Shown piece by piece: positions 3,125 to 46,308 of a stretch of DNA of 47,347 nt. A program made the position numbers and the translations under genes. The stretch is from Catajapyx aquilonaris. Lineage: Eukaryota. The notes under the pieces were generated by a model. The model saw nothing but the letters and a program-made list of their open reading frames with translations. It ran no database searches and was not told the origin of the DNA. The DNA lies in contig KZ538791.1 of assembly GCA_000934665.2 (NCBI GenBank), forward strand, positions 1 through 47,347, read 5' to 3'. Positions within the stretch are counted from its first letter, which is position 1; each line of letters begins with the position of its first letter.

Positions 3125-3506
3125 ATTTTTGAGAAATACCCCGTGCTAGAGCCATGGGCTCTCTTAGGGAAGTGGATTACCACTATCGTGCAGGGACAGG
3201 GTTTCAAGTTGGGGGTCGTGTGCAGTCCCTCAGGGGGGGCCCCCTAAGGGACTGCACACGACCGCCAAGATGACCCCCTAGATGCGAGTCAGAAACTCCC
3301 ACTGACCCGCACCTCCTCCAGGGCAGGGAAAGGAAGGAAGCGGCTGTGGCCTATTTTACGGTACGATCCCGGAAATTATTCCGGGGGTGACCTTGGGAAA
3401 CCACAGAAAACCAAGGTCAGGATCGCTGGCCTCCGGGATTCGAACCCAGGACCTCCCGATTAGCAATCGGACACCATATCCACTAGACCACTATACTGCT
3501 TCGGTC
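3121..3506 (-). mobile_element. tRNA-derived SINE, copy 1 (head A + core + module B + tail)
   Basis: Minus strand: A box tagtggtctagtgg, anticodon-like loop ttgctaa, B box ggttcgaatcc, core ggttttctgtggtttccc, A-rich tail; homologous to 13247-13698 and 44616-44926. Confidence 0.85.
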
Positions 3507-41838: not shown

Positions 41839-43096
41839 AACTCCGGTGGAACCAAATAATAATAATTCATCTTCCGACTAGATTTCGGATTCCTATTAAC
41901 AAATACGGTTCGAGGTATACTCGGAACATGACCTTATTTTCTTATTCGCCCCATCCTCACCCCTGTAAATATTTTAAAATAATTTTATTAATAACATTTT
42001 GGTGCTTTGCTCAATAAAGCCCTGCATGCATGAAGTGGCGTGTAAGAAACCTTTTTGACTGTGCTATTTTATTTCACATTGTATATTTTGGATTGTAAAG
42101 CTTTCCCCTCCACATCTAACTGTACCGACGTTTTCTTTATCGCGCTGTTACAACTGTTACAAGGCGAGCAGTCAGCGGGAAGACAGACTTTGTTAAAGTC
42201 AGTCCTGTTTCGTCTTTGGGGAACCTTGTTCTCTTACCGTATACCTCAAGCTTCCATTGCACCTTTTCCGCTGCGTAACCCGGTTACATGGGGCCTGTTT
42301 TTCACCACTTGTATAATAAGTAGAAGCCTGTAAACTAGTAACGGGTTATGAAGGGTTATCTCTTGTAACCGCTTGTAAGCACCGATAGCTAACCATAACC
42401 GGTGTACACTTGGGGAAGTTGCTAACCCTTTAGGTAGTAGACACATTCTAGATGCGAATAGTCTGGTAGCCGCACAGAAAATATGTAAAATTCCCCTCTA
42501 TGCATTAGCTAGTATAGTCTACTGAGGTAACAAAATAACGCTACACATACGGTACTGTTATAAATAATGATTATGTGATTAGAATAATCGCTTCTCTAAT
42601 ATAAATGTTTTACCACTGCAAAACAAATGAGAACCCTGCATGCAAAATGTAATTACCCAACCCCGTTGTTCTTTTTTGTTCATTGGCGCAGTTTATTTCT
42701 AAATAAACAGGCTACTGTTTCAGTACAGTACCTAGTGTGATAGTGAAGATGAATGAAAACTGCAGATTTTATGAAGCATTCCGAGTACCATGGGGCAGGG
42801 AGGGGGCTTCTGTGTCCTGACAACCCCGAGAGCTATATCGGCGGTAACTTCGTAGACTAGCGACCATTGCACATTTTGAGATTTCAATACTGGTAGTCCC
42901 CGGTTTATGAACTTACTAGGTAGCCAGTTGCCAAAAAAAAACGATGATATCTCCACCTTATCGTGGTGATGGGGGGGGGGGGGGGGNGCTGCGTTTCTCC
43001 CATGACCCAGAGAGCTATGCCGGCGGTAGCTTCGTCTACTGGTAGGGCCATCCAAGCCGGACAGGTCTTTGGGATAGGAGACAGACTAAGAGAGAT

Positions 43097-43942
43097 ATCA
43101 GTCTTTCCTCTCTTCTTTTTCCTCTTCGTTTCTCCCTCCATCTGTCCCACCTTTGCTTCTTCTATTATATCTATTATACGAGTATAGCCATATCTATTAT
43201 ATAGCCATCTCTATATCCCAGCCAGCTCTGATATTCTGATATTCTGATGATATTCTGATGATATTCTGATATTCTGATGATCCTGGATGTCACCACTCCA
43301 TTCGAGAACCGTCCGGAGGCGTTGGCGGAGGCCCGAAGGCTGAAGGAAGTGAAGTATGCGGCCATTGCTGACCATTATCGGCCTAATTTCAGGAGGGTCA
43401 CCGTAGATGCTATTGTAGTTGGGGCCTTGGGAAGCTGGGACCCAGCTAATGATCGGGTAATGAGAAGGCTCTGCGGCAGATCATACCTGAAGCGACTGCC
43501 TGCGGTGGTCACGCAATGTCTACATCGAGCACATCACTGGAGTGAGGCAGTTCTAACTTTGCCTGCTTGTTTATGTAAAACGTCCCTGTTTGTTTATGTA
43601 AAACCCCCCCATGGGTGTCATAATGTCTTTTGTTTATGTTATTACAGCTGTGACCAATTTTTTAAATATGGCATAGTGTTTTGCTGGGTTTACATGATTG
43701 TGTGTCTATATGTGGCATGTTGAATTATGTTTTTAAAACATTGTTTACAGTTTTTATGTCGTTATGACCATCAGCATTTGAGATATTCAAGTCAAAGACA
43801 TAAATAAAAATCAGTCTTTCCTCTCTTCTTTTTCCTCTTCGTTTCTCTCTCCATCTGTCCCACCTTTGCTTCTTCTATTATATCTATTATACGAGTATAG
43901 CCATATCTATTGTATAGCCATCTCTATATCCCAGCCAGCTCT
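43097..43942. repeat. 133-bp direct repeat pair (43097-43229, 43810-43942)
   Basis: 131/133 identical by manual alignment. Confidence 0.95.
43230..43809 (+). mobile_element. 5'-truncated Utopia/NeSL-clade non-LTR retrotransposon (restriction-like endonuclease C-terminus + 3'UTR)
   Basis: ILDVTTPFENRPEALAEARRLKEVKY...VDAIVVGALGSWDPAND..RRLCGRSYLK then, after a frameshift, LRWSRNVYIEHITGVRQF* (stop 43554-43556). AT-rich 3'UTR ending aataaaa; flanked by a 133-bp direct repeat. Confidence 0.88.
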
Positions 43943-44003
43943 ATATCTATATCCCACTATAGCCCACTATATCTATAGCCCAGCCAGCTCTACATCTATT
44001 ATA

Positions 44004-44331
44004 CAGGGTGTCTCATCTTTTTTGTCCGAACAGTTATCGGAAAATTGCGCGTAGCTGCTACTTTTTAAGCAGTGACTTGCAAACGGTGATTTTTCGGAGG
44101 AACAGGGAATATTCCCTGCGAATCGTAGGTTGAAGTGGCATACGTGCTACCCGCTGAAAATCGAGGAGCAAGCCTGGAAAAAACAGGGTCACACATGCCA
44201 TGAGATGTGTGACCCTCTTTTTCCCCATTCCCCATTCCTCCGACAAATCACCAGTTGCAATCACTGCTTAAAAATAGCAGCTACGCGCAATTTTCCGATA
44301 ACTGTTCGAACAAAAAAGATGAGATACCCTG
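44004..44331. mobile_element. Tc1/mariner-type MITE with ~105-bp TIRs
   Basis: TA + cagggtgtctcatcttttttg... / ...caaaaaagatgagataccctg + TA. Confidence 0.9.
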
Positions 44332-44360
44332 TATAGGGTATAGCCATTATATCTATTATA

Positions 44361-45111
44361 CAGGGTGTATCTGAACTCAGTGCCCCGACGTATATGACTG
44401 CCTTCCTAGCCACCAGAGGATCGATTTAAGTATAGGAGTCATTATGTCTGGCCGCCGCATTACTGAGATAATTATTGGCCGCACACATGTAGTACAAAAT
44501 ATCTTGTCGGTTAGGCCACCCATCGAACCCTCCCCCAGTCAGAAGGCTCTGGAAGGTCTGGGGGCGGGACTTTGTTGGTTTTTTGCCCACAGGTGGTAAG
44601 GCCTCTTTGGCTAGTAATAATAATTAATAATTTGATACCCCATTATCAGCCTACGGGCTTTCCTAGGGGGGGATTTCTCCCAATTTTTTTTGTCTGGAAC
44701 TCTTCCATTTTTACTATTTTTCTCATCACCGGAATGAAGCAGGGAAAGGGTAGGAAGAAGGCGGCTGTGGCCTATATTGGTAACGACCCCGGAATTATCC
44801 TGCAGGGACCATGGGAAACCACAGAAAACCATGGTCAGGGTTGCCGGCCTCCGGGATTCGAATCCAGGACCTCCCGATTAGCAGTCGGTCACGGTCACCA
44901 TACCACTACACCACTACTGCTTCGGTCTCTTTGGCTAGTTACACCAGAAAATTCTCTTTAAAAGTCAGAAGGAGCGATTAGGCAAAAATCGCTAAAGAGA
45001 GTATCTCAGTAATGAGGCTGCCCAGACATGTGACTCCTATACTTAAATCGATCCTCTGGTGGCTAGGAAGGCAGTCATATACGTCTGTGCACTGAGTTCA
45101 GATACACCCTG
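44361..45111. mobile_element. Tc1/mariner-type MITE with ~110-bp TIRs, containing SINE copy 4
   Basis: TA + cagggtgtatctgaactcagtgc... / ...gcactgagttcagatacaccctg + TA. Confidence 0.9.
44616..44926 (-). mobile_element. tRNA-derived SINE, copy 4 (head A + core + tail, no module B), 13-bp TSD
   Basis: TSD ctctttggctagt at 44603-44615 and 44927-44939; same head and core as copies 1 and 2. Confidence 0.9.
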
Positions 45112-46150
45112 TATAGCCAGATAGGCCATAGTTGCTTTGGCTTCTTCATAATAAACCAAACCAAACCAAACCAAAATTTGGCAAAAATGGTTAGTCTCTT
45201 TCCCTCCATCCCTCCCTCCCTCCCGCTCTCTTCTGCCTGGAAGACATCCATCTTATTGGATCTTGCCCCGGTGTAGTTGAGGATGGTGTTCATGATCAGG
45301 TTGCCTGTATGTTGGCCGCACCTGTTTTCCTCTCTACCACGTCTTCCAGTAAAGTTATTTTGTCGAACAGCAGGACCGGACAAGCCCCAGGACACTACCC
45401 TCCTCTTATCGCCTTTGGGGGTCTAGCGGAGCGGTTTGTGGGAGGTGACCGCTTCAGAGCGCTTTGCCCAGTTTTCTTCAGGGGCTAGGCTAAACCAGTG
45501 GCGACACCACCGGACTCAGTAGAAGAGAGCCTCATGGTATTTGCGATTTGCAAATTCCCTGAGCACTTTTCAACAAAAAAAAGTCTATTGCAGATATAGA
45601 CCACGCGGGCTAAATTTTGGGGCCACTCCCAACTCTGTAGGCCGTGCACAGCGGGAGAAATCGTAATCACAAGTAGGGTATTAATAATACAGATTAGAAG
45701 ATGGAATGACTTACGGCGATCCGTACTTACGAACGGGCTCCCAAGGCTCCCGTGAATGAAAATTTATAATTATTCCGCCACTTTTAATCACCTCTTCGTA
45801 TGTTGACCGACACCAAGTTCAACATAAATACTGAATAATTGATAAGTAATTGGGAAATTACGTTCTTTGCGCAGGCATACGTGACGCTATAGCGGTTCGT
45901 TGGAGCAAAATCTTGACACTGTATACGGTATGTGCGCTGTTTCTTAGGGATTCGAGTTACCATAGTACTAATTCGACTTATGGACATTTTCACGAACGTA
46001 ACCACGTTCATAAGACTGGGGTCTGGGGACTACCTGTATTCCCATTCGTTTGTGCTCATTTGTTCTCATTTATTTCCGGGTTTCGCGATGTCTTCCGGAT
46101 ATCCGTTCAAGAGCTATTTGAGTCTCAATTTGGCTCGGACGTGTCTTTAT

Positions 46151-46308
46151 TGGGTAGGAGACAGATAAAGTGAGTCTTTCCTCTTGTCTTTCTCTTTTCG
46201 TCTACATTTCCATCAGTCTCTATCCATCTGTATATATCGTGATATAACCAGATAACCGTACCGTATAGTTGATTTGGCTTCTTCTCACTCGAACAAGCAA
46301 ACAAACAT
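46151..46308 (+). mobile_element. Diverged 3' part of the same RTE-derived non-autonomous family as 42951-45175
   Basis: gggtaggagacaga..agtctttcctct.. and tatagttgatttggcttctt..(CAAA)n align with 43071-43150 and 45112-45175; 5' boundary uncertain. Confidence 0.6.

Follow-up and report, generated by a model that had tools for sequence, protein, structure and literature searches.

Why does a fragment of a non-LTR retrotransposon lie exactly between two long direct repeats, at a site outside U2 snRNA genes? One locus in the window, which is the whole 47,347-nucleotide stretch of Catajapyx aquilonaris DNA that we analyzed (C1515), raises this question. The preliminary description reported 133-bp direct repeats around a 580-bp insert, and we confirmed this: 43097-43229 and 43810-43942 differ at 2 positions in 133 bp (131/133 identical). 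Of the 580 bp between them, 36 bp are reiterated filler (43230-43265) and 544 bp (43266-43809) come from the element, a Utopia copy truncated at its 5' end, of the NeSL clade and with a restriction-like endonuclease (RLE). The features of the locus are listed here.

42942 to 43096, plus strand: head of a host non-autonomous retroposon (the target), with expanded poly-G, stopping at the insertion site; 89% identity to the intact copy L127
43097 to 43229, plus strand: left copy of the 133-bp unit, very probably a target-site duplication; ~67 bp of retroposon tail and ~66 bp of locus-specific low-complexity scar
43230 to 43265, plus strand: templated filler; native element sequence picks up again at 43266
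43266 to 43809, plus strand: 5'-truncated Utopia copy, with a C-terminal RLE remnant and 3' UTR
43810 to 43942, plus strand: right (original) copy of the 133-bp unit, beginning at the family's fixed first-strand site
43943 to 43999, plus strand: low-complexity scar, continued
44000 to 44335, no strand assigned: putative MITE-like element with 66-nt inverted ends, inside the retroposon tail
44357 to 45115, no strand assigned: second MITE-like element, with 85-nt inverted ends
45112 to 45175, plus strand: displaced rest of the retroposon tail, with (AAACC)n at its end
46136 to 46301, plus strand: old empty copy of the host retroposon, ~70% identity

Low-complexity reiterations of the retroposon's own TA-containing tail (43164-43229, 43877-43999, and 44336-44356) surround the two MITE-like insertions and resemble templated repair scars. 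A tRNA-SINE-like element (44601-44939, minus strand), with a ~15-bp direct repeat on its flanks, lies within the second MITE-like element. Elsewhere in the window, 3433-3490 (minus strand) gave a weak Rfam tRNA match (33.8 bits) that was not called by ARAGORN. It is probably a SINE head.

The repeated unit had been assigned to a host repeat. This is correct for its first ~67 bp, which are the tail of the host retroposon, but the other ~66 bp are low-complexity sequence specific to this locus. Similarly, the relative noted near 46136-46301 is a copy of the host repeat, but it does not have the second half of the unit. A 24-mer from the low-complexity half has exactly two matches in the whole assembly, both in the window, and a rare T at +1 is common to both copies of the unit. 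Therefore, the 133-bp unit was copied from the window locus, and the long duplication is a true one. It starts exactly at the family nick site and ends exactly at the truncation point of the element. We consider it very probable that the insertion generated this duplication. The filler follows a 2-nt (CT) microhomology and is built of copies of the element's first 8-14 nt.

Apart from indels, the window element is ~98% identical to its sister copies. Compared with these, it has a stop at 43554-43556, a 23-bp deletion at ~43490, and a 21-bp duplication at ~43584-43604. Two of the motifs on which the preliminary description relied, DVTTPFEN and VVGALGSWDPAND, are both in frame within 43262-43723. 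The other, WSRxxYxEH, is present but frameshifted by the 23-bp deletion. The sole Pfam match to the window fragment was a sub-cutoff one to UL97, which we take to be chance. Longer copies of the family encode zinc fingers, RT, a CCHC knuckle, and RLE in a single ORF. Their RT matches Pfam RVT_1 (E=2.4e-14), and the CCHC knuckle is accompanied by RPDL...ILDV...KEVKY motifs, which we take to be the PD..D..K motif of a restriction-like endonuclease. Three N-terminal C2H2-type zinc-finger motifs were recognized by eye across C11287 and C6989. Rfam had no match for the element's 5' end.

Several observations place this family in the Utopia lineage. Its best database matches (E 1e-166 to 1e-71) are in arthropods, turtles, and nematodes, whereas R2 structures match far more weakly (8e-25). 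The best named relatives are from spiders, ticks, a springtail, aphids, and crustaceans. The same genome contains canonical Utopia copies at U2 nt 39 (L060, L061, L063, and L064), one of which has an intact 1568-residue frame. The U2-targeting and retargeted sister proteins are 57-59% identical over RT and RLE. A quick maximum-likelihood tree was made with IQ-TREE from 294 columns of 127 RT-region sequences, after 2 of the initial 129 had been dropped as too short. In this tree, which contained neither named Repbase Utopia/NeSL sequences nor an R2/R4/HERO outgroup, the retroposon-targeting copies fell into one clade with the U2 nt-39 families (SH-aLRT 98), in agreement with the Utopia/NeSL identity first proposed. 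The branch joining the retroposon-targeting family to two other families had an SH-aLRT of only 80.

Other copies were collected from the assembly (G000; 286 Mb in 20,583 contigs), in which a DNA search gave 44 matches and a 3'-end pattern gave 23. We examined 35 loci, 33 of them with a recognizable 3' end. In 32 of the 33, the intact 3' end is followed, beyond a short A-rich run, by the same position in one host retroposon. These were assigned by script score (29), by a 14-nt match (C2224), or by eye across later insertions (C2758 and C6663). The single 3' end off the retroposon site is C107. The insertion that breaks the C2758 3' end is a tRNA-SINE-like element similar to window 44601-44939. 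U2 snRNA followed the element in 0/33. The site is therefore outside U2, in agreement with the preliminary description, but the target is not relaxed, as had also been suggested there: it is one site of one host repeat.

The host retroposon is a non-autonomous repeat of ~280 bp that has (AAACC)n as its tail and is flanked by short duplications. At least 353 of its target sites are intact in the assembly. Just 3' of the nick, 6-7 of 10 bases agree with U2. Flank variants are locus-specific and occur on both sides of the element (the T at +1 in the window; C2452). Because these variants match on both flanks, the retroposon tail must belong to the target and not to the element. The possibility that the host tail is part of the element's 3' UTR was thus ruled out, since variants and truncations differ per locus; retroposon heads preceding elements cut at many points also argue against it. 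One variant of the host retroposon sits in a larger repeat (L122, L128, and L031:2400-5230) with a hairpin and CTAG at its end, which is presumably Helitron-like. This variant is also targeted by the Utopia family.

The 3' junction is fixed in the retroposon, and the family belongs to a clade with U2-inserting families. Therefore, we are confident that this Utopia-lineage family switched its target from U2 snRNA genes to the retroposon site. It is Utopia by descent and mechanism, not by target.

The host retroposon may be of RTE origin. For its head, an HDV-like double pseudoknot can be drawn (P1, P2, P3, P1.1, an L3 loop, and C-N-A in J4/2), and in this drawing the insertion site would be within the 3' strand of P2. 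An HDV-like descriptor found 8 of 11 copies and 1 of 5000 shuffled sequences, but it was fitted after seeing the sequence and is biased. The folding energy of the head (z-score, -0.23) does not support an HDV-like fold, and Rfam had no match for it. PMC3774820 was used for the features of R2 ribozymes. The portion available of Kojima 2018 (PMC5786205) describes bipartite elements derived from RTE as well as RTE ribozymes. Like the bipartite non-autonomous RTE LINEs described there, the host retroposon has no tRNA head, short flanking duplications, a microsatellite tail, and, at its 5' end, a candidate HDV-like pairing pattern. An autonomous RTE partner was not found in one pattern search, which gave only 2 more short-repeat copies.

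The 5' junctions are variable. We scored 23 of them: 13 are deletions of 1-33 bp, 2 are duplications of ~25 bp, and 8 are long duplications of 66, 81, 133, 167, 229, 235, 273, and up to 314 bp. Long duplications thus recur, as expected of the long-duplication lineage that had been postulated. C3450 and C5758 were scored as one junction. C2758, in which the two flanks differ, and C2786, which has an inverted tail and no head, were dropped from the count, and loci without a retroposon head or with a 5' end running off the contig were not scored. Two of the 8 long duplications are proven within one contig, and the rest are inferred as follows.

C1515 (window): 133 bp; both ends in one contig
C2745: 235 bp; both ends in one contig; 186/192 identical over the retained part, with a later insertion and a gap
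C11287/C10158: 273/273; paired across contigs; probably a full-length copy
C8982/C13881: 80/81; paired across contigs
C8580/C7324: 66/66; paired across contigs; pairing uncertain, because the flank is multicopy
C2397/C10144: 167 bp; partner contig starts within the tail of the retroposon, so it might be an empty allele
C5375/C6089: 229 bp; partner contig likewise starts within the retroposon tail and might be an empty allele
C6989: at least 121 bp and up to 314 bp; no partner contig found in the assembly

The C11287, C8982, and C8580 pairs were matched by sequence identity, and in each the partner contig starts with the element 3' end. Even at the weaker loci, a duplication is a reasonable call, given that almost all 3' ends lie at the nick. 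The 273-bp unit is not the element's 5' UTR, which we had also considered, because it consists of retroposon tail and a fragment of a host transporter-like gene, the two paralogues of which are only 93-95% identical. The element's 5' end starts after the unit and matches the 5' end of a sister family. At least three copies of the transporter-like (MFS; labeled by eye) gene segment exist (L132:221-1094, L151, and L152; 93-97% identity), and one copy, fused to a truncated retroposon, makes up the 273-bp duplication.

Microhomology of at least 2 nt was present at 8 of 11 direct junctions (chance, about 0.16 each; the 2 nt at C2397 were scored by eye), and 7 of the 11 had 3 nt or more (chance, about 0.05 each). 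Templated filler occurs at C1515 and C5986, and inverted pieces of target occur at C499 and C2786. Of 14 inserts of at least 500 bp, 8 have a long duplication, compared with 0 of 9 shorter inserts (Fisher p=0.007, with hand-estimated insert lengths), but an assembly may collapse short inserts that lie between long repeats, which would bias this contrast. Three U2-type 5' junctions were also seen: a duplicated piece of the U2 5' end (L103:3796-3859), a short deletion (L104:67-97), and a 21-nt U2 stub between tandem copies (L150:3558-3578). All are short alterations and are too few for comparison with the retroposon-targeted set.

These observations suggest that the long duplications have a repair-type origin, to which we give a probability of about 0.6. 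The element's endonuclease would nick the bottom strand at the fixed retroposon site, and reverse transcription would be primed precisely from this RLE nick. The 5' end would be joined by microhomology-primed, repair-type synthesis, with no fixed second nick. If the cDNA end annealed upstream of the nick, a 1-33-bp deletion would result. If it annealed downstream and copied back to the nick, tens to hundreds of base pairs would be duplicated. Annealing downstream might take place within the same duplex or on the sister chromatid, or it might use a top-strand break some distance away. The 133 bp of the window is one draw from a broad spread of lengths. For R1/R2 (PMC2718515) and L1 (PMC11702581 and PMC2881922), first-strand junctions are described as precise, and 5' junctions as variable and rich in microhomology. 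These precedents support the junction style and not the length, because only short duplications are described in the available text of those papers.

The preliminary description envisaged a second-strand cut at ~133 bp from the first nick, roughly nucleosome-scale, in a relaxed-target lineage. The window duplication has this length, and the 8 long ones average 187 bp. However, their standard deviation is 84 bp, with no mode, and no other copy is near 133. The junctions range from -33 to +273 (possibly +314) with no cluster near 133-147, and no 10-10.5-bp helical periodicity was found in their positions (Rayleigh p 0.2-0.95, n=10). Junction microhomology and templated filler also point to repair-type joining and not to a fixed nucleosome-scale second nick, and the target is strict (32/33), so we find this explanation hardly credible. 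A second nick by the element's endonuclease at variable, often distant downstream positions, with strand displacement filling in the duplication, is another alternative to repair-type joining. Long duplications at 8 of 23 junctions are frequent for an accident, and in the classical model, as given in the available part of PMC2881922, the second nick sets duplication length. Microhomology does not distinguish between the two, because it fits host repair as well as a distant nick after which the polymerase of the element does the priming. A relevant example is R9 of Adineta vaga, an RLE element said to have been reported by Gladyshev and Arkhipova in 2009 and to make an exceptionally long target duplication. 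It reportedly belongs to the R2 clade, targets 28S, and makes a fixed 126-bp duplication, whereas in our family length varies copy by copy, so an R9-like nick would have no fixed distance. But the lengths extend from 24 to about 300 bp with neither mode nor helical periodicity, 13 of 23 junctions are deletions, and up to 273 bp of duplex would need unwinding. We therefore regard variable distant nicking as possible but unlikely.

The window duplication could also have nothing to do with insertion. The scar, the two MITE-like elements, and the 23-bp deletion and 21-bp duplication show repeated repair at this locus, so an unrelated break repaired after insertion might have produced the second copy. 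However, the unit is bounded exactly by the nick site and the truncation point of the element, and the same geometry is found at 7 other loci, which makes this improbable. Alternatively, filled and empty alleles might have been concatenated in a fragmented assembly. The two mismatches between the copies would fit this, and among the unitigs listed for four runs, none extends across the right junction or across the entire locus. However, in one of the four runs a 165-bp read-derived unitig (depth, 35.7) spans the left junction (43136-43300) with 0 differences, although this run may be the source sample and is not independent. Allele collapse cannot create that unique left junction, and we consider an artefact very improbable.

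Repair-type joining could be taken further. Perhaps copy-back without a nearby second nick is this RLE element's normal route and duplicates 60-300 bp of target, the element having moved from U2 to one fixed site within the last helix of a retroposon with a ribozyme head. We offer this only tentatively, as a possibility with the odds against it. If it is true, duplication-type junctions would keep the candidate host ribozyme intact upstream and could give new copies a transcribed, self-processing leader. The family would also lend itself naturally to studies of how endonucleases are retargeted and how the second strand is completed.

In the available text of Kojima and Jurka 2015 (PMC4640811), Utopia includes strict U2 families, weakly specific families, and NeSL and YURE offshoots, and its duplications are given as none in arthropods and 20 bp in reptiles. 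Our family resembles these elements in its single ORF with N-terminal zinc fingers, RT, CCHC knuckle, and RLE and in its precise 3' and variable 5' junctions. It differs in that its target is a retroposon, neither U2 nor scattered U2-like sites, and in that 8 of 23 junctions are duplications of at least 66 bp. The weakly specific families of reptiles and some ants use diverse U2-like sites, whereas here there is one site in one repeat family. NeSL-1 and YURE also changed targets from U2-specific ancestors, but to spliced-leader genes and a U2-derived satellite, respectively, and not to another mobile element. The supplements of PMC4640811 had no match to the element's 3' end or target motif.

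LINEs that target another transposon do exist in the APE-type Tx1 clade, namely Tx1-Mar and Tx1 (Kojima 2015, PMC4494074, as available). Tx1-Mar groups with Keno, which is U2-specific, and thus offers a parallel in which a U2-linked lineage inserts into transposons. However, these elements have APE and not RLE, their named targets are DNA transposons or LTR elements, and the duplication quoted for the partner SINE is 16 bp. Precedents therefore exist for each half of our observations, transposon targeting in the Tx1 clade and, reportedly, long duplication in R9. The title of the R9 long-duplication paper appears in the reference lists of PMC3636483, PMC5035012, PMC13580325, and PMC7650587. A literature search whose coverage did not extend to subscription journals and Repbase Reports gave no report of a Utopia/RLE element targeting a SINE, and no published Utopia with a retroposon target or such long duplications.

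How site-specific retrotransposons change target and complete the second strand matters for R2-type genome-writing tools. Because U2-targeting and retargeted sisters are present in one genome, comparing them directly can map the determinants of specificity. The long duplications, with their wide spread, record the 5'-joining step in a way that is not predicted by a fixed-nick model. Furthermore, a low-copy essential gene was left for a dispensable repeat of several hundred copies, which bears on how Utopia persists in few U2 genes, a puzzle raised in the available text of PMC4640811.

Two minor observations concern U2 and Utopia elsewhere in the assembly. Diverged copies of the first ~35-50 nt of U2 lie ~100 bp downstream of several U2 genes (L051:1796-1829, L053:406-444, and L060:1808-1856). 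A further Utopia family (L036:250-5450 [G000:C7132] and L106:6680-8720) has no U2 match in its flanks, and its copies appear nested within Utopia-internal sequence. It has a ~150-bp 5' module in common with the retargeted family, at 87% identity.
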